64,000 nt of DNA, from the sequence record OM362897.1; one strand, given 5' to 3'. Shown one piece after another: positions 6,961 to 61,727 of this stretch. A program made the translations under genes and the position numbers. The notes beneath the pieces are model-generated. The model was not told the origin of the DNA and did no database searches. It worked only from the letters and a program-made list of their open reading frames with translations. Positions within the stretch are counted from its first letter, which is position 1; each line of letters starts with the position of its first letter. Source of the DNA: Escherichia phage SKA64.

Positions 6961-7284
6961 ATGAGATTTACAAGACAAGAGGTAGTTGTGCTGGACGAAG
7001 CAATGACAATGATCGTCTTTTACTATGAAGATATCTTCTGTGCAGCATATCATTTAAATGACATTCAGATTGAATGGCAGCAGATAGCATTCCTGTTGGA
7101 CAAGAGTAATCATTTGGATGGCTTTGAGTATTTGGAGTGGGATGGTGCAAAGGAAGTTAAAATTGTAGGGTTAAATCACGATCAGATTGTTGACATGCAA
7201 TGTAAGTTGTGTCATTATCAGTTCTCAAACAAAGTCAAACTCGAAAGGCAATTGGAGGTGGTTAAAGATGATAGCACTAATTAG
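6961..7284 (+). CDS. hypothetical protein (first gene of the plus-strand block)
   Basis: 107-aa ORF with RBS-like aggaggct upstream. Confidence 0.4.
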   Translation: MRFTRQEVVVLDEAMTMIVFYYEDIFCAAYHLNDIQIEWQQIAFLLDKSNHLDGFEYLEWDGAKEVKIVGLNHDQIVDMQCKLCHYQFSNKVKLERQLEVVKDDSTN

Positions 7285-10376: not shown

Positions 10377-10733
10377 ATGAGTGGTATTGAAAACAATATT
10401 TGTTACCAACCTCTTACCTGGATGGGTGAGGGTCATTATGCGCAACGTGTTATCGTCTGTGCTGCAAATAAGTATATTTTGAATAATGGTGAAGAGTTAA
10501 TTATTCCTTGTGTTCGACATGCAAATCCTGTATTATCTGCACAATTGAACGTATTGAAAGAAGCAGGTGTTCTTGATAAAGTGCATTGTCTTCCAAACAA
10601 TCAAGGTTTTATTGATCAATACTACAATTGGTGGAGTCGTGAAGATGCATACATTATTGCAAAACACGCAGACCAGATTGACTACGAACGTAATGGTCAT
10701 GATCGTGACCTATTTAGCGAGGGATTATACTAA
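10377..10733 (+). CDS. hypothetical protein
   Basis: 118-aa ORF. Its stop overlaps the next gene's start. Confidence 0.35.
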   Translation: MSGIENNICYQPLTWMGEGHYAQRVIVCAANKYILNNGEELIIPCVRHANPVLSAQLNVLKEAGVLDKVHCLPNNQGFIDQYYNWWSREDAYIIAKHADQIDYERNGHDRDLFSEGLY

Positions 10734-11284
10734 TGTTTATTACAAGCGATTTGCATTTTATGCACAAACGTATACGAGAGTTTGCTCCTGAATATCGACC
10801 GTGGGAAGATATGGACCACATGACAGAAGCACTGATCGAAGCATGGAATAAATGCGCTACGAGTCCAGGTGTCAAGATGTGGCATTTGGGTGACTTCTGT
10901 TTCGGGACTGAAGAAGATACCCGTAAGATTGCTTCCCGCCTCCAAGGTGATATCACTTATTGTGTTGGGAACCATGATTACAGCAAACACCGAGAAGTGC
11001 TTGCAGAGTATGGAGAAGTGGTGTATTATGACGAAGTGAAATATCAGAAGCTGTTCTTCGTCTTAAGCCATTACCCTATGGCCTCCTGGAATAAGCAAGG
11101 TCGTGGATCAATCATGCTACACGGGCATTCCCACGGATCTTTCCCTGATGAAGCTTATGGTAAAATGTTAGATGTGGGTTGGGATGCACACGGAAAAATC
11201 TTACATTTTGATGAGATAATTTCTATGATGAGTAAACGAGATATCGTAACTGTAGACCATCACAAAATAATCAAAGGAGAGTAA
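10733..11284 (+). CDS. calcineurin-like metallophosphoesterase (candidate RNA 3'-phosphatase)
   Basis: Motifs SDLHF, GDF, GNHD, GHSH. Sits directly upstream of the RNA ligase and kinase genes. Confidence 0.6.
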   Translation: MFITSDLHFMHKRIREFAPEYRPWEDMDHMTEALIEAWNKCATSPGVKMWHLGDFCFGTEEDTRKIASRLQGDITYCVGNHDYSKHREVLAEYGEVVYYDEVKYQKLFFVLSHYPMASWNKQGRGSIMLHGHSHGSFPDEAYGKMLDVGWDAHGKILHFDEIISMMSKRDIVTVDHHKIIKGE

Positions 11285-11285
11285 T

Positions 11286-12218
11286 GTGGCTAAATTTAAT
11301 TGCGACGATTTAGTTGAAAAAGGTTTAGTTCATAAGAAAACATATAAAGAAGGAGAGTATTCTGGTCTATCTGTTCTTAAGTATAAGAACAAAGTTTTCT
11401 GGGATAACCTATGGAACATTGATTCTCGTCTTCTAGAATGTCGCGGAATCGTTGTTGACGCTGATGACAATGTTGTTATTTGGCCTTTCACTAAGATTTT
11501 TAATCGTTTTGAGAATGGCACAGATCTACCAGCGGATGAATTTGTAGATGTTGTTCGTAAAGTAAATGGTTTTATGGCCTCTGTAGGTGTATATAAAGGT
11601 CAACTTATCGTATCGACAACAGGAAGCCTTGAATCAGATTTTGCAAGTATTGCAAAGAATCGTATTGTTTCAGAGTGCGATGACATAGAACATTTCATCA
11701 AATGGACAGAGAGTGCAAAAGCAACTTTCCTTTTTGAAATCTGTGATCCTTCTGATCCGCATATTGTCGAAGAAGAACCAGGTGCATACTTAATTGGTGC
11801 CAGAATTCAAAATCCTGACGGGACAAGTTTTATGTTACCTGAAGGTGCTCTTGATGGAATTGCTTCTGTCACCAAATTTAAGCGTCCTGAAGTTCATCCA
11901 ATGGTTAAGTTTTCAGATGTTGTTGAAATGTCTAAACATTGTAAACACGAAGGGTTTGTAGTTCGTGAAACAAACTATCCGTTCAACTTACTTTTAAAAA
12001 TTAAATCACCACACTATCTTACTAAGAAGTTTCTTATGCGCGGTGGAGATAAAAAGTGGGATCTGATTTGGGATAATCCACAAAATGCCAAACAAATTGT
12101 TGACGAAGAATATTACGCTTTGTTAGAATGGATTCGAAATAACTTTACGAAGACTCAATGGGCTGCTTTAAATCAGCAAGAGCGACGTGAAAAAATCGAA
12201 AACTTCTTTGGAGGATAA
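11286..12218 (+). CDS. RNA ligase, T4 Rnl1-like
   Basis: LLECRGIVVDADDNVV, PFTKIFNRFEN and lysine motif VRKVNGF resemble T4 Rnl1 (from memory). GTG start. Confidence 0.6.
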   Translation: MAKFNCDDLVEKGLVHKKTYKEGEYSGLSVLKYKNKVFWDNLWNIDSRLLECRGIVVDADDNVVIWPFTKIFNRFENGTDLPADEFVDVVRKVNGFMASVGVYKGQLIVSTTGSLESDFASIAKNRIVSECDDIEHFIKWTESAKATFLFEICDPSDPHIVEEEPGAYLIGARIQNPDGTSFMLPEGALDGIASVTKFKRPEVHPMVKFSDVVEMSKHCKHEGFVVRETNYPFNLLLKIKSPHYLTKKFLMRGGDKKWDLIWDNPQNAKQIVDEEYYALLEWIRNNFTKTQWAALNQQERREKIENFFGG

Positions 12219-12623
12219 ATGAAACAACTTATCATTTTACGTGGCGTTTCAGGTGCTGGTAAATCTACGGTAGCAGAAATTATTTCTGAAGGTTATTGGC
12301 CTATCTGTGAGGCAGATCAATATCATTACACAGAAAGTGGTGTTTACGATTGGAAGCCAGAAAATGTAGGTAAAGCACACGCATGGTGTCAGAGTATTGT
12401 TCGTGATGCTATGGCATCTAATCTTAACAAGATTATTGTTTCTAACACTTCAACCACAGAGAAAGAACTTAAACCTTATTTAACTCTTGCTGAAGAGTTT
12501 GGTTATCAAGTTATCTCTTTAGTTGTTGAAAATAGGCACGGTAATGATTCAATTCACGAGGTTCCACAATATATTCGTGATCAGCAAGAGAAGCGTCTTC
12601 GTGGTTCACTTAAACTTCAATAA
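12219..12623 (+). CDS. P-loop polynucleotide kinase-like protein
   Basis: N-terminal Walker A ILRGVSGAGKST. Size and context match a 5'-kinase module of a Pnkp-type repair set. Confidence 0.55.
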   Translation: MKQLIILRGVSGAGKSTVAEIISEGYWPICEADQYHYTESGVYDWKPENVGKAHAWCQSIVRDAMASNLNKIIVSNTSTTEKELKPYLTLAEEFGYQVISLVVENRHGNDSIHEVPQYIRDQQEKRLRGSLKLQ

Positions 12624-12632
12624 GGAGAAATA

Positions 12633-12956
12633 ATGCAGATTTATACAGATGATCGTAAATATGAGACAATTTTAGATGAAGATACTGGACGAATTACCGT
12701 TCTCCGCCACGGTGAAGAGTGGCGTGATGAAACGGGAGATAATTACATCTTGTCTCTGATTCATCTTATTGAACAAATGCGCGATGATTACGCTGAACTC
12801 CATTATGAAAATGAGGCGAATAAAGTAAAATTTGAAAATGAGTTAGAAGAGAAAGAATCCGAAATGGTATATCTAAAAGAAGAGATCTCTCGTTTGGAGG
12901 AAGAGATTGATGCTCTTCAGGAAGAGATTTACGAACTCATTAAGGACGGATTATGA
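12633..12956 (+). CDS. hypothetical acidic coiled-coil protein
   Basis: 107-aa ORF rich in E/L heptad-like repeats. Confidence 0.35.
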   Translation: MQIYTDDRKYETILDEDTGRITVLRHGEEWRDETGDNYILSLIHLIEQMRDDYAELHYENEANKVKFENELEEKESEMVYLKEEISRLEEEIDALQEEIYELIKDGL

Positions 12957-13144
12957 AAAAAGATATCGTTGTTGTTGGTTGGCTGACTTGCCCTTGTGGT
13001 AGTAATGACATAACTGTAAACACAGAGGGTGATAAAAATTATTTATTCTACGGTGATAAAATCACTTGCAATACCTGCGGACGTGTTGGTATTATAGAAA
13101 CCGATGATTGCTGCGTTTTTGAATCTTGGGATGAAGATGAATGA
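12953..13144 (+). CDS. hypothetical zinc-ribbon protein
   Basis: 63-aa ORF with CPCG...CNTCG. Confidence 0.35.
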   Translation: MKKDIVVVGWLTCPCGSNDITVNTEGDKNYLFYGDKITCNTCGRVGIIETDDCCVFESWDEDE

Positions 13145-13349
13145 GTACTGCATTTTATGTTCGTAGTGGGGACGAGGATTTTCTAGCTACTTTTGATGAC
13201 GGTGATCTTGAAGATATGTATGAAGATATGTTTGACTATGCCAAAGGGCAAGGTTTCACAAGCATTGATTATATGTTGGCAACATCTACAACGTTACTCG
13301 ACGCAGATTTGGATGAAGTGTGTAACAGATTGAAAATTTCAGTTTTTAA

Positions 13350-31229: not shown

Positions 31230-31988
31230 ATGGGAAATAAAACCGCAGCTAAAACACAACGGCAGAAACTGGCTAATTCAGCAAAGATTGAAAGCCGTTA
31301 TGCAGCAAAAGCGGTAGGTAATGACGATTACCGTTTAGATGAATTTATGCCTGAAGGGGACCAAAATAAGATTGTTCAAAGCATGATTTGGAATGATCTG
31401 ACTGTTGTAAATGCTCCGGCAGGGACTGGTAAAACCTCTGTTGCTTTATGGAAAGCTTTGCAGATGCTTCGTTCAGGAGACTTCCGTAAACTACTTTTTA
31501 TCAAGAACCCTACTGAAGTCGGAGATGACCAGATTGGTTTCTTGTCTGGAGATAAAACAGATAAACTAGCAGCACACTATGAATCTACAAAACGTATTTT
31601 CCAGCAATTCATGACAGCCAACAAATTGGAAAACGATATTGGATCAGGTAAGATCGAATTGAATATTCCTAACTATTTGTTGGGGGCCACCCTGGATAAT
31701 ACAATCGTCATTATTGACGAAGCACAACTTATGTCAACAGAAACACTTAAACTTCTTATTGAACGTGCAGGTATTAATACGCATGTTATTGTATTAGGCG
31801 ATGTTCGCCAGACATATGCAATTAAAAAACGTAGCAATGGTCTGCATCAAATTTTGGAACTTTTATATCCAGAAAATGAAGAAGGTGTTCGTGAGCCAAT
31901 TGTAGATTTTATTGGATACGTTGAACTGACAACGGACGATAATAAACGTGGACGTTTGTCTAAACTGATTACTGAAGTGTTTATTTAA
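31230..31988 (+). CDS. phoH: PhoH-like ATPase
   Basis: Walker A VNAPAGTGKTSVAL. Start chosen at the in-frame ATG 31230 after a hairpin and RBS. Confidence 0.7.
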   Translation: MGNKTAAKTQRQKLANSAKIESRYAAKAVGNDDYRLDEFMPEGDQNKIVQSMIWNDLTVVNAPAGTGKTSVALWKALQMLRSGDFRKLLFIKNPTEVGDDQIGFLSGDKTDKLAAHYESTKRIFQQFMTANKLENDIGSGKIELNIPNYLLGATLDNTIVIIDEAQLMSTETLKLLIERAGINTHVIVLGDVRQTYAIKKRSNGLHQILELLYPENEEGVREPIVDFIGYVELTTDDNKRGRLSKLITEVFI

Positions 31989-32020: not shown

Positions 32021-32524
32021 TTGATGGGTGTAGCAACAATAGCTATCGGAAGAAGCGGTATAGATGAGTGCTATCAAACGGGACTCGTAAAACCTAACGA
32101 ATTTCGTCAAATTTGTGTAAACCATATTGAAAAAGAGATTGCTCTTACTTTAGAGAATATGACCCTCCGAGATAAGCTGGAAATGTTTAAATGTTGGTGT
32201 CTAGGAGAAGATTGGCTTTTAAACCATTTTCAAGAACTTTCTGATAGTAAAGAAAGCTTGTTTGATTGTATAATAGGAATAGCTGGCTCCGATCCTAGCC
32301 TTCTGCACATAACAGAAGAAGAGGCGAAGTTACTGTTCTTAAGTAATTTGTTTAATAAGAAAGCACTGCTTGTTCGTGATTGCAGTGATCTTCTTAATAA
32401 CCCGCTCGCAACGTCTGATCAAATTTTTGTTGACAAAGAGACACTACGTGCGATAGAATACATCTGCAAATATGTGAATGGCGGGAAAGCGGTTCTTAAA
32501 ACATTAACAGAGGAGGAAGAATAG
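32021..32524 (+). CDS. hypothetical protein
   Basis: 167-aa ORF immediately upstream of the HslV-like gene. Confidence 0.35.
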   Translation: MMGVATIAIGRSGIDECYQTGLVKPNEFRQICVNHIEKEIALTLENMTLRDKLEMFKCWCLGEDWLLNHFQELSDSKESLFDCIIGIAGSDPSLLHITEEEAKLLFLSNLFNKKALLVRDCSDLLNNPLATSDQIFVDKETLRAIEYICKYVNGGKAVLKTLTEEEE

Positions 32525-33216
32525 TGACGACAATTATTGCAACCAAAAATAAGATTTTGAGTGACGGTAAGGTAACTTTTGGTGGACGTGTAGATTCTAT
32601 TAATTTCAAAAAGGTCCGAAAAATTGGAGATTACCTTGTAGGTGGTGCTGGTCGTCTGACCTCCGTGCTTTCTTTCTTTCAATGGTTTGAACAAAATCTA
32701 CAGTGCGAAGCAGCACGTGATGCTGTCCCTGGTTTGATGATTCACTCTGATCCAGACAAAGAAGATGAAGAGTTTATTGCACTTGTTGTTCATCCAGACG
32801 GACGTATTTTCCTGCACGAGGGTAACAACCCAACACGTGCATATCCGATTGATGAAGAATATTATGCAGTAGGGAGTGGGTCAGACTTTGCTTTAGCTGC
32901 TCTTGATGCAGGGGCAACACCAGAACAGGCTATGGAAGTAGCTAAAAAGCGAGATGCTTTTTCTGGTGGTGAAACATTTATTGAAGAACAAGACGAGATT
33001 ATTGAATTAACAGACGATGATTTAGAAAACTTCTCCAAAGAAGAATTGATCAATCTTTTGAAATTCGGTAATCCCTACGGTGAAGAAGAACCTCGTAACG
33101 TGGCAGGTAACGAGGCGGATACTGAAGAAAAATCTGTTGCAGAAAACAACTTGACTTCTAAATCTGAAAATATTAATCTCGTAAATGTGGCGGATTTCGA
33201 AGGAACCGCTATTTAA
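32524..33216 (+). CDS. HslV-like proteasome-type peptidase (Ntn hydrolase) with acidic C-terminal extension
   Basis: MTTIIATKN... with Thr at position 2, FKKVRK, GGAG, AVGSGSDFALAA align with E. coli HslV as recalled. GTG start. Confidence 0.6.
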   Translation: MTTIIATKNKILSDGKVTFGGRVDSINFKKVRKIGDYLVGGAGRLTSVLSFFQWFEQNLQCEAARDAVPGLMIHSDPDKEDEEFIALVVHPDGRIFLHEGNNPTRAYPIDEEYYAVGSGSDFALAALDAGATPEQAMEVAKKRDAFSGGETFIEEQDEIIELTDDDLENFSKEELINLLKFGNPYGEEEPRNVAGNEADTEEKSVAENNLTSKSENINLVNVADFEGTAI

Positions 33217-33261
33217 CAAACTGCCCCTTCGGGGGCATTTCTTAAACATAGGAGATTAATA

Positions 33262-33696
33262 ATGTTACAAGTTCCTGCTAAGTTTGTTGAAGGCGCTATC
33301 CACTCTTACCGTCAAACATGTAAGAGGGCAAGAAACTGTTTAGATGGTCTGGTGGCAAAAACCTATACTGTTGAAAAGAAGAAACGTTGGTTTGGCAAAG
33401 ATGTTTACGAAGTTAATATTTTTGGTGAACATAAACTAAACCACGATACTCCTGAAAACATGTTAGAAATATTTCTAAGAGATGACAAAATATCTCCTAT
33501 GGATTACCAACTTTTAAAATTTTATGATTCTTCTTTGGCTATTGATAAGTTTGTTGAAGATATTCTGTCTAGAAAAACAGATAAAAACACTTATCCTCTA
33601 GAAGCTGATCAAATAGGATTATTAAACGAGATTTCATCCTTTAAAGAGTTGGATAATATTACAAAAGAGGAGATTTTAGATGGCATTAGATTATGA
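33262..33696 (+). CDS. hypothetical protein
   Basis: 144-aa ORF. Confidence 0.35.
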   Translation: MLQVPAKFVEGAIHSYRQTCKRARNCLDGLVAKTYTVEKKKRWFGKDVYEVNIFGEHKLNHDTPENMLEIFLRDDKISPMDYQLLKFYDSSLAIDKFVEDILSRKTDKNTYPLEADQIGLLNEISSFKELDNITKEEILDGIRL

Positions 33697-59830: not shown

Positions 59831-60164
59831 TTTTCTCTCCTTCGTAATCTTGAATTCTATCTAGCACCCATTGTATACGATGTTTGTTTTTATGGCAAAT
59901 ATGTTTTTTATGTTCGAAGGTGTATTCTTCATAACCACCTTCATTAAACGGGAAATTGTAATCCAATCCTGCACCAATAAACTGTGATTTCATCTCCTGT
60001 TGTAGACGAGGTAACAGTTCATCAGGATATGTTCCCTCTACATACTTAATCAAACATATACACAAGCCACTCGTTGTGTGACCTTCTACCTCACCAGCAA
60101 GCCAAGCTTTGTAAAACTTCATTAGACGTAAACTACTCAACGGAACATTTTTACTCTCTTGCAT
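59820..60164 (-). CDS. hypothetical protein, paralog family A member
   Basis: FYKAWLAGE...SGLCICL...AGLDYNFPFN...RIQWVLDRI. Tandem with 59462-59830. Confidence 0.4.
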   Translation of the reverse strand: MQESKNVPLSSLRLMKFYKAWLAGEVEGHTTSGLCICLIKYVEGTYPDELLPRLQQEMKSQFIGAGLDYNFPFNEGGYEEYTFEHKKHICHKNKHRIQWVLDRIQDYEGEKNDK

Positions 60165-61727
60165 GATAATCTCCTCTCATCGTTAGCCATCTTTCATGGC
60201 AATCATCAATCACCAACATCATACGATCAATCTTAGGGAATTACAATCGAATTATCATAGGGGATTCCTATCAATTATCCCATATATACCGATTATTTTT
60301 GACACCCCACTCTTGTATAAAAAGTAACCCAAAATATCTACGGGGAGAGATTATTTCGGGACACCCTGTTTCATGGCAATCATGGCAAGAATATCTAATA
60401 GAATCAATATCATATGGCAAAAATCATGGCGCATACGTAAGAAGTGCTTAACGCGAATTTTCGGGCCGTCAGGTCCACGCAGCGACAATTCCCAAATATC
60501 ATGAGAATGAGAATAATTATCATTCGTATTCAATGACTTATGCAAGGCTTATGCCAACGTAGCGACAAGGTGGGCCACTTGATTATAAATCACACAAACA
60601 CTTATTTATCAATGGTTTGGCAACCTCATCATATGACGGAACAATGTCAACTGATCCCGCTCATGACAAGCAGACTATTATTTATATGAGAATGATTATT
60701 ATTTAAACGTTTATTAGCATAAAAACTAAAATAAATCAAGAATTTTCTGATTTTATTTACGTTTAAGAGAAGATGCTCAACATATCGCTACGCGATAGTA
60801 TTCGCCCCCGAAAGATTAGCCTTTATTTTCTTGTATGTTTATACGCTATGTGCACACTATGCAACCTGTCGCTATTCGCTCATGTTGCTACGTGCTAATA
60901 CTTCACCGTGCTAATGATCTTTGAGCGATAGCGATTATTTCATCTTGTAATTACCACAATGATTATTGTTATTGCGCTAATGTTATGATCTTGGTAATTA
61001 CATATAATGCTAATAATAAGCCAGCGCAATAAGTGTAAGCGTATTACGCTTGCAATTATTGCAAGCTACGCAGTAACAAGAAATAACCATCACCGATGGT
61101 TATGATTGTTGGGGTGTAGTTGGCTTATTATTAGCTCGCTATGTGTCCGGCATAGCGTGCTAATGATGACTCTGTGAATGATTCGTTTTGTAATGATTTC
61201 ATTTAGTCACTATTATGGCAATAGTTATTATTTTAATGGTTTCGTTTGTTATTGTTCGTTAGTTGGTTGTTTTGTCGTGTTATCGTTATCTTGCTTAGTA
61301 TTCATCATGGTTTGATTGTTTGTTGTTATCAATCATCTTGCTATTATTCCTTTGATTATGATTAGTTTGCTTATTGTTTTATGTTGTTTGTTGGTTAGTT
61401 GTTGCGAACTATTATCAACATTATAGTTATGCACTTATATTGCATAGATAAACATGGATAGATGATAATGGTTATCATTGCACTAGAAAGGAGGTAAAAG
61501 GGTGTTTTTGATGGTTTGTTGTTGGTTGTTGATCGATTTTAACCGCTTTAAATGGCTCTCTAACAGCCTGTTACCCTGGGAGGTATGGTTATTCATTTAA
61601 TGGTTGATTAGCTCGATACCGCGATCTATTCAGTTTTGTTCTGTGTCGGTTTTTCATAGGCGGAATCTATCAACATTATTCAGGCAAAAAGAAAGGGCGC
61701 TTAGTGCGCCCCTTGTTTTGTTGTCAA
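60165..61727. repeat. about 1.5-kb non-coding region with short repeats, palindromes and a GT-skewed tract
   Basis: No ORF of 60 aa or more except one doubtful 64-aa ORF. Repeats TTTCATGGCAATCAT (x2), GTGCTAATGAT (x2), GCGATAG-like motifs; palindromes at 61037-61064; GT-rich 61200-61440. Confidence 0.5.
61693..61714 (-). terminator. hairpin terminator candidate downstream of 61728-62147
   Basis: GGGCGC-TTAGT-GCGCCC flanked by A/T runs. Same sequence recurs at 62260-62276. Confidence 0.45.

Follow-up and report, generated by a model that had tools for sequence, protein, structure and literature searches.

A PPH-type N-terminal-threonine peptidase with a conserved hairpin and an acidic tail encoded by Escherichia phage SKA64 and related phages

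A stretch of 64,000 nucleotides from Escherichia phage SKA64 (sequence record OM362897.1; hereafter the window) was analyzed with regard to one gene at positions 32524..33216 (+ strand; 230 amino acids (aa) plus stop), which corresponds to gp175 of phage phAPEC8 and encodes a PPH-type N-terminal-threonine peptidase. The product is a genuine proteasome/HslV-fold N-terminal-threonine hydrolase which, judged from the conservation of its active site, is catalytically competent. The function that we favor, at slightly better than even probability, is that of an intracellular, ATPase-independent threonine peptidase that would assemble into rings and cut peptides or unfolded/disordered proteins in infection, with a C-terminal appendage that would gate access or recruit targets.

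Profile, sequence, and structure searches agreed on the family assignment of the peptidase. The Pfam model PF00227 (Proteasome) matched above its cut-off (25.6 bits; gathering score: 22.4; E-value: 1.1e-5), and PHROG 1040 (“peptidase HslV family”) matched residues 1–229 with an E-value of 1.6e-63. A phmmer search against the PDB sequences gave HslV from T. maritima (1m4y) as the best match (E-value: 4.9e-9), together with 12 further HslV entries. An AlphaFold2 (AF2) model, which was built from 48 homologs and for the monomer only, had a mean predicted local distance difference test (pLDDT) score of 83 with values >90 across most of the core. Its best Foldseek matches in the PDB were HslV (3ty6, 6kui, 1m4y), archaeal and eukaryotic 20S beta subunits, and BPH (E-value ~1e-10, probability 1.00, target-normalized TM-score 0.64–0.69), and it has the alpha-beta-beta-alpha sandwich of the N-terminal nucleophile (Ntn) hydrolases. 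The similarity to the proteasome/HslV family is well above chance. A preliminary description of this DNA, made from the letters alone, had recognized an HslV-like proteasome-type peptidase by its sequence blocks and suggested a profile search; the blocks (FKKVRKIG, VGGAGR, and YYAVGSGSDFALAALDAGAT) are all present and the identification was borne out.

The catalytic Ntn core, delimited by invariant residues and the AF2 model, comprises residues 1–155 (32524..32988, +). Residues Thr2, Asp14, Lys30, Gly43, and Gly117-Ser118-Gly119 were invariant in alignments of 26 and of 48 homologs. When aligned to what we take to be the sequence of E. coli HslV, the positions Thr2, Asp14, Lys30, Gly43, and Ser118 correspond to its Thr1, Asp17, Lys33, Gly48 (oxyanion hole), and Ser124. 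The start codon of the gene was read as GTG, not ATG, and the N-terminus as fMet-Thr-Thr-Ile-Ile-Ala-Thr-Lys-Asn. The Thr directly behind the initiator (MTTIIATKN), on which the preliminary description had relied, thus stands, and none of the 48 homologs replaced it. Nearly all of ~80 diverse homologs on IMG/VR contigs likewise have M-T-T at their true start, from which it follows that there is no propeptide and that removal of Met alone would expose the nucleophile. Against an ortholog of 86% identity, the proportion of nonsynonymous differences in the core (pN) was 0.06 as compared with 0.76 for synonymous differences (pS), and the ratio of the nonsynonymous to the synonymous rate (dN/dS) was ~0.1 where it could be estimated in the ortholog comparison. 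Such strong purifying selection points to an enzyme under selection and not to a decaying or decoy copy.

The peptidase nevertheless departs from true HslV. The NCBIfam HslV equivalog models TIGR03692 and NF003964 gave 31.4 bits (cut-off: 157.75) and 32.2 bits (cut-off: 137), and because these scores are far under the cut-offs the peptidase is not an HslV ortholog. In the AF2 monomer model a long helix H1 (residues 45–67) is followed by a low-confidence loop (68–84), where HslV has H2 and where no helix was predicted, and then by H3 and H4. In HslUV structures the pocket for the C-terminal tail of HslU is lined, among others, by HslV Lys28, which is the partner of the HslU C-terminal carboxylate, and by Arg86 on H2. 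The pocket includes Phe54, Phe57, Ala79, Lys80, and Gln114, with Ala79 and Lys80 carried by H2 (PMC6429459). In the alignment, the Gln114 position is Leu in the phage peptidase and the Lys28 position is Ser, varying between Ser, Gln, Asp, Thr, and Asn among the homologs; Phe57 is kept and Phe54 is conservatively replaced by Leu. The pocket residues of H2, including Arg86, have no counterpart in the monomer model or the alignment. Since H2 is missing, Gln114 and Lys28 are replaced, and the equivalog scores lie below the cut-offs, canonical docking of host HslU onto the phage peptidase appears unlikely, and the pairing with host HslU (ClpY) considered in the preliminary description is disfavored.

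The same description also considered a dominant-negative effect on host proteolysis, i.e., a decoy that mixes with host HslV or titrates HslU and by this stabilizes proteins needed by the phage; the acidic tail described below could, speculatively, serve as a competitive pseudo-substrate. Co-assembly into mixed rings is, however, implausible at ~25% identity to HslV and with the interface helix lost, the residues of the HslU pocket are not conserved, and an inert decoy would need neither invariant catalytic residues nor strong purifying selection. We therefore regard a decoy as highly improbable.

Behind the core, the preliminary description had noted an acidic C-terminal extension of about 60 aa. 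The extension is indeed acidic (net charge -15), but it comprises ~75 aa (residues 156–230) and is not uniform, being composed of a conserved two-helix hairpin (residues 156–184; 32989..33075, +) and an acidic tail predicted to be disordered (residues 185–230; 33076..33213, +; net charge -8; pLDDT 44–60). The hairpin was delimited from the AF2 model, motif conservation, and selection. Its helices (164–169 and 172–181) were modeled with a pLDDT of 87–89, and its motif, (L/I)T-x-E-x-L-x-x-F-(S/T)(K/R)E(E/Q)L(L/I)-x-L(L/M)-x-x-G, recurs in 92 distinct long-form sequences, whose sources are metagenomes and phages of enterobacteria, Vibrio, and Aeromonas. Compared with the ortholog L007, the hairpin had a pN of 0.085 and a pS of 0.85, which indicates purifying selection. 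The sequence of the tail is near-neutral (dN/dS 0.6–1.1 in the ortholog comparison), and its acidity is conserved, with a net charge of -4 or below over the first 30 residues after the hairpin in 87 of the 92 family members. In relatives from metagenomes and from Vibrio and Aeromonas phages, the tail is followed by one more C-terminal domain. The long form can be read from the sequences as core, hairpin, acidic linker, and optional end domain, an architecture that is not spelled out in the literature accessible to us and that suggests tethered recruitment or regulation.

The hairpin of some members has the sequence EELVRYIFG, which is similar to EDLSRFIL, the C-terminal activating peptide of HslU; EELINLLKFG, its counterpart in phAPEC8, is less similar, and the motif is internal and not C-terminal. 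The likeness offers a lead towards a built-in activator but does not amount to evidence for one. Extending it, long-form PPH could be a self-activating mini-proteasome, in which the hairpin, with the motif S/T-K/R-E-E/Q-L-L/I-x-L/F/Y-L/I/M-x-G, docks in cis or in trans in the inter-subunit groove that the missing H2 leaves open and replaces the allosteric switch of HslU, while the acidic tail (with an SAP/HeH-like end domain in Vibrio and Aeromonas phages) captures basic or nucleic-acid-associated host proteins for ATP-independent degradation in host takeover and the product of the upstream gene, gp174, serves as adaptor or inhibitor. We offer this only tentatively, as an improbable elaboration; if true, a hairpin acting as built-in activator would be a new mode of regulation for a proteasome-fold enzyme. 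As to the end domains themselves, a two-helix motif of the SAP/HeH-like DNA-binding type, e.g., EDLKMYADLLGVKFPHNIGQDTLAQKL, was seen at the end of several longer relatives from Vibrio, Aeromonas, and metagenomic phages (L003:4001–4834, L002:4001–4885, L023, L024, L029, and P0072–P0079). The likeness was recognized by eye, and a Pfam search of the end domains of the longer relatives returned only a sub-threshold SAP match (E-value: 0.16). Other long-form PPHs have Cys-rich end segments (P0061–P0063, L046).

The window was searched for an unfoldase that could serve the peptidase. A tblastn search with the AAA ATPase of phAPEC8 gave no match in the 64 kb, no AAA+ gene is listed in the phAPEC8 annotation, with which most of the window can be aligned, and the one window-specific stretch that was covered (10733–12956) encodes no AAA+ unfoldase. 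All three confirm the earlier remark that no such gene is adjacent. None of ~80 related loci has an adjacent hslU operon partner, and a Pfam tally of 101 neighbor proteins from ~80 loci (non-redundant proteins within three genes of PPH) showed no recurrent AAA+ family; the most common families around PPH were portal, lysozyme, PhoH, and terminase.

The scan of the rest of the genome that had been proposed did return one candidate. Gp014 is the sole AAA-family ATPase in the whole phAPEC8 genome (Pfam AAA PF00004, above cut-off with an E-value of 8.7e-7; phrog_2376; phAPEC8 record 139005–140144, outside the window) and might be the missing unfoldase of a two-component protease. It is present in the peptidase-carrying Phapecoctavirus and Justusliebigvirus genomes, and its weak PDB matches include proteins of the Cdc48, VAT, Rix7, and Afg2 type, the clade that partners the archaeal 20S proteasome. 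Its co-occurrence with the PPH family, however, does not support a partnership. The gp014 family was found in 394 phage records, those beyond E. coli phages being mostly from Enterococcus, Bacillus, Staphylococcus, Lactobacillus, and Lactococcus phages, none of which is among the 233 phage records encoding PPH, and the PPH-encoding Vibrio, Caulobacter, and Rhizobium phages are absent from its leading match groups. Moreover, the two genes are ~105 kb apart in the record, gp014 neighbors a CapR-domain endonuclease gene, clamp loaders and helicase loaders make up the remainder of its weak matches, and its C-terminus (…LGSVF) is neither an HbYX nor an HslU-type tail. A role of gp014 as partner is accordingly quite improbable. 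The gp014/gp013 pair itself (L087:35406–37805, outside the window) consists of a gene for a 379-aa AAA ATPase and, after it, one for a protein of 394 aa that contains a treble-clef zinc finger in addition to four CapR homology domains, and the gp014 ATPase family is widespread in large Firmicutes phages.

With no linked unfoldase at hand, acting alone is the best supported of the three options named in the preliminary description (host HslU partner, independent action, dominant-negative inhibition), although oligomerization and ATPase independence belong to the proposal and not to the observations. In the mechanism that we propose for independent action, host methionine aminopeptidase would strip the initiator Met and expose Thr1, there being no propeptide, and catalysis would then follow the pattern of HslV and the 20S beta subunits, with Thr1 assisted by Asp13, Lys29, Gly42 of the oxyanion hole, and Ser117 (numbered from the mature N-terminus). 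The subunits would form a ring-shaped homo-oligomer enclosing the active sites, by analogy with HslV and BPH. Because there is no dedicated AAA+ unfoldase, the ring would cut peptides and unfolded or disordered proteins rather than folded ones, and the conserved hairpins and acidic tails, six or more per ring, would form a regulatory or recruiting appendage.

Several points weigh against unassisted action of this kind, and some of them speak for a peptidase that hijacks HslU (ClpY), whose hexamers would dock, feed substrates, and redirect ATP-dependent proteolysis. The host E. coli has HslU, the closest solved relatives of the peptidase are HslV proteins, and the H1 side of the pocket is kept, with HslV Phe57, Phe60, and Glu61 corresponding to Phe51, Phe54, and Glu55 of the peptidase and Arg35 likewise conserved in the alignment, so that some form of tail docking may take place. 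On its own, HslV has very little peptidase activity before it is activated by HslU or by the C-terminal peptide of HslU (PMC6429459), and an unassisted homolog may therefore need an activator as well. The neighborhood evidence leaves room for an unlinked or a host partner, a ring lacking H2 is proposed by analogy while the model is that of a monomer, and no functional or biochemical work on any PPH or phage HslV was found in the searchable literature. Hijacking of HslU has in turn to contend with the absence from the model of H2 with its Ala79 and Lys80 (PMC6429459), with the Leu at the Gln114 position and the variable Lys28 position, with equivalog scores of 31–32 bits vs. cut-offs of 137–158, and with an acidic appendage of 75 residues per subunit that could hinder docking. 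We consider it unlikely, and independent action remains the preferred reading.

The gene directly upstream of the peptidase gene is closely tied to it. It encodes an all-alpha protein of 166 aa (gp174 of phAPEC8; phrog_14834; 32024..32524, +; match to PHROG 14834 with an E-value of 2.5e-103), and its TAG stop codon (32522–32524) shares one base with the GTG of the peptidase gene, which implies that both genes are translationally coupled. A Shine-Dalgarno sequence, AGGAGG, was read directly from the sequence at 32510..32515 (+), 8 nt 5' of the GTG. A homolog of gp174 lies directly 5' of the peptidase gene in every locus with a peptidase of at least 47% identity, and in the more distant locus L023 one lies 1.8 kb upstream. 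Gp174 had no Pfam match, and apart from its own PHROG neither fold nor family searches returned anything significant; its AF2 model (pLDDT 90) is all-alpha, and Cys16, Cys120, Arg118, and Asp122 are invariant in the family alignment. From the coupling and the synteny, gp174 could be an adaptor, an inhibitor or regulator, a partner, or a substrate of the peptidase.

Because Aeromonas phage 2L372D has two adjacent HslV-family genes, gp174 was also considered as a divergent second proteasome-like subunit. This was rejected, as hhalign against the PPH family gave nothing and the model is all-alpha; BLASTP of gp174 against the Aeromonas paralog gave no match. Homology of gp174 to the upstream genes of the Vibrio and Aeromonas phages was rejected too (hhalign probability of only 1.4 and 0.2%). 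The tandem PPH paralogs are found in 2L372D at L002:3432–3983 and 4001–4885, and in L081/L082 at 6001–6564 and 6561–7124. The upstream paralog of 2L372D keeps Thr1, Asp, and Lys and has G-C-G in place of G-S-G. Such tandem paralogs hint at hetero-oligomeric phage proteasome-like particles.

The presence of a conserved, translationally coupled gene whose product has no significant fold match is also one of the arguments for a specialized Ntn enzyme that would use the same catalytic Thr as a transpeptidase/ligase like archaeal connectase or as an amidase with a single host or phage molecule as its target. The superfamily includes a characterized ligase, connectase, and Fuchs et al. expect some of the new homologs to be incompatible with stacked rings (PMC8665760); the loss of H2 together with the appendage suggests a quaternary structure unlike that of HslV. 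On the other hand, the nearest relatives in sequence and fold are all self-compartmentalizing peptidases (HslV, BPH, 20S beta), there is no likeness to connectase-specific features, and no substrate candidate is at hand. We judge a specialized enzyme of this kind to be quite improbable and retain the ring-forming peptidase as the preferred reading.

Further signals around the peptidase gene were taken from consensus scans. A GC-rich hairpin (TGCCCC-TTCG-GGGGCA) followed by TTTCTT lies 6 nt past the peptidase stop codon (33222..33243, +), and this terminator-like element may mark the end of a transcription unit. A sigma-70-like site (TTGACA-18-TAGAAT; 11/12 matches; 32430..32459, +) lies inside gp174 at its 3' end and 65 nt ahead of the GTG of the peptidase gene; since the scan gave 26 such sites in the region vs. 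19.5 expected from shuffles, the evidence for this site is weak. The next gene downstream (gp176 of phAPEC8; phrog_15078; 144 aa; 33262..33696, +) is syntenic in Stephanstirmvirinae-like contigs and has no family match except to its own PHROG.

Two genes upstream of the peptidase gene lies a gene for a PhoH-like P-loop ATPase (31230..31988, +; Pfam PhoH E-value: 1e-36), which is the nearest P-loop protein and is helicase-like, not an AAA+ unfoldase. The order lysozyme, PhoH, gp174, PPH is kept in 20 or more loci, and PhoH is upstream of long-form PPH in Vibrio and Aeromonas phages as well; Caulobacter and Rhizobium phages have no PhoH gene next to their short PPH genes. The shared order of PhoH and PPH probably reflects common descent of the phages. 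PhoH was not adopted as a functional partner, its P-loop domain being helicase-like, its gene being absent beside short PPH, and the synteny being explicable by ancestry.

On the map of phAPEC8, the + strand block around the peptidase gene encodes lysozyme, PhoH, glutaredoxin, dTDP-sugar enzymes, ribonucleotide reductase, thymidylate synthase, methyltransferases, and a phosphatase, and the peptidase gene is on the opposite strand to the head genes. Given this position among genes of nucleotide metabolism and host takeover and not among head genes, the peptidase probably acts inside the infected cell. The same position is at odds with a virion or prohead maturation protease, as is the presence, next to the portal gene in the head module, of a separate protease of the XkdF/S78_2 type (Pfam E-value: 1.4e-11; phrog_3017). 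What speaks for such a role is that in some other phages a portal, terminase, or capsid gene is at most three genes away from a short PPH gene; for the peptidase of phage SKA64 we find it hardly credible.

The protease of the head module is gp117 of phAPEC8 (record 66487–66966; L086:11611–12087; outside the window), which is annotated as “DNA methyltransferase” and directly follows the portal gene. Its sequence matches, to Pfam Peptidase_S78_2 (XkdF-type phage serine protease) and to phrog_3017 (“head maturation protease”), make it probable that it is a mis-named prohead protease. The head-adjacent short PPH genes (~140–180 aa) were seen on several unrelated contigs (IMG/VR, L030–L085), where PPH could take part in morphogenesis. 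One PPH neighbor is a homolog of the anti-CBASS protein Acb1.

With regard to its distribution, the 6 kb around the peptidase gene are 99.7% identical to phAPEC8 and to dozens of Phapecoctavirus genomes (Stephanstirmvirinae). The peptidase (gp175; YP_007348462) is 99.6% identical to the coding sequence labeled “peptidase HslV family” in NC_020079, and other depositors have used the labels “ATP-dependent protease subunit HslV,” “putative proteasome component,” and “20S proteasome.” Using tblastn, relatives were found in 233 phage records (Escherichia, Vibrio, Caulobacter, Aeromonas, Klebsiella, Rhizobium, Shewanella, and others), and 153 IMG/VR stretches also contained relatives. A profile search of 1.84 billion representative proteins gave 9801 matches at an E-value of 1e-3 or below, 4068 at 1e-10 or below, and 59 at 1e-30 or below; the long-form subgroup comprises about these 59 cluster representatives out of the 4068. 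The long form was found on phage contigs only, and a scan for bacterial-genome homologs, made with two peptide patterns in 185,579 species genomes, returned a single contaminant-like contig of 425 bp.

The novelty implied by the preliminary description does not hold, because RefSeq phAPEC8 already carries the label “peptidase HslV family” and the ATPase-less phage clade has been published as PPH (PMC8665760). Gene and family being annotated and published, the finding is a correct re-discovery, to which the present analysis adds the negative results for partners, the placement as PPH-like rather than HslV, the hairpin and acidic-tail architecture, and the coupled upstream gene. As a rule, a proteasome-type peptidase is of no use unless an unfoldase or activator assists it, and the phage version raises the questions of how it is activated and what it cuts, which were already posed in the literature (PPH, 2021). 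It is of practical value that the gene is present in easily grown E. coli phages, namely the phAPEC8 group and phi92-like Justusliebigvirus including isolates propagated on K-12.

One relative, phage VEcB (NC_052663.1 21495–22298; L089:1501–2304), has an open reading frame of 267 aa in which PhoH residues 1–113 are fused in frame to PPH from about residue 66. The deletion of 1.13 kb removes the C-terminal half of PhoH, the gp174 homolog, and the catalytic Thr/Asp/Lys, and the fusion keeps the RefSeq label “peptidase HslV family.” Besides VEcB, 54 records matched, its closest relatives among them, and in all rows among the matches listed the alignment fell into two pieces, which is consistent with an intact module of 2.93 kb. 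Either VEcB is a natural knockout that is viable, or its assembly is in error; the deletion, if real, would mean that the module is dispensable in the laboratory.

Some features elsewhere in the window were recorded in passing. A stretch of ~2.3 kb (~10919–13210) has no counterpart at that position in phAPEC8. The + strand at 10733–12623 encodes a calcineurin-like metallophosphatase (10733–11284), an RNA ligase of the T4 Rnl1 type (11286–12218; Pfam E-value: 5e-15), and a small P-loop kinase (AAA_33; 12219–12623), a set that looks like RNA/tRNA repair of the type used by phages against anticodon nucleases. The gene of the terminase large subunit is at 4–2076 (-), and just downstream of it are 11 tRNA genes (3582–5501, -; Rfam tRNA, 39–72 bits). 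In the early region, a 1.5-kb stretch between a predicted terminator and gp245 (L090:5512–7022; ~60150–61700 of the window) is without an annotated gene in the RefSeq record of phAPEC8.

The peptidase can finally be placed among the known systems. It shares with HslV (ClpQ) the fold, the catalytic residues, and a Thr1 exposed by removal of Met, and HslV gives its best PDB matches in both sequence and structure; it differs from HslV by an identity of ~25%, the missing H2 and hslU neighbor, the partial loss of the HslU-tail pocket, and the appendage of 75 aa. HslV proper is a dodecamer made up of two hexameric rings stacked on each other. BPH (PDB 5ovs), which is among the top fold matches, is similarly a stand-alone proteasome-like peptidase without a known ATPase partner, but it keeps H2 and forms a heptameric double ring, and its query-normalized TM-score (0.42–0.45) was below that of HslV (0.52–0.53). 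Fuchs et al. show PPH radiating from BPH in their cluster map (PMC8665760). The related cluster RPC lacks H2 as PPH does and has a C-terminal extension (PMC8665760), i.e., extra sequence of unknown structure; compared with the long form by description only, it differs in being listed only in Proteobacteria (Table 1, PMC8665760), whereas the long form was confined to phage contigs. PPH itself was described as a compact, H2-less homolog of ~140 residues in tailed phages, prophage remnants included, with no partner named (Fuchs et al., 2021, PMC8665760). Like PPH, the peptidase is borne by a tailed phage, has a compact core with Thr1, Asp17, and Lys33, lacks a propeptide and H2, and has no ATPase described with it, and its core has homologs in the ~140-aa proteins encoded by Caulobacter and Rhizobium phages (32–35% identity, E-values of 1e-6 to 1e-10); unlike PPH, the protein of phage SKA64 has 230 aa instead of ~140 and adds the hairpin and the acidic disordered tail. 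Encoded by a Phapecoctavirus, with a core (residues 1–155) that has H1, H3, and H4 but no H2, and a member of PHROG 1040, the peptidase fits the PPH clade of Fuchs et al. (2021), which we equate with PHROG 1040, an assignment made from the profile match and these features and separate from the CLANS clustering of that paper.

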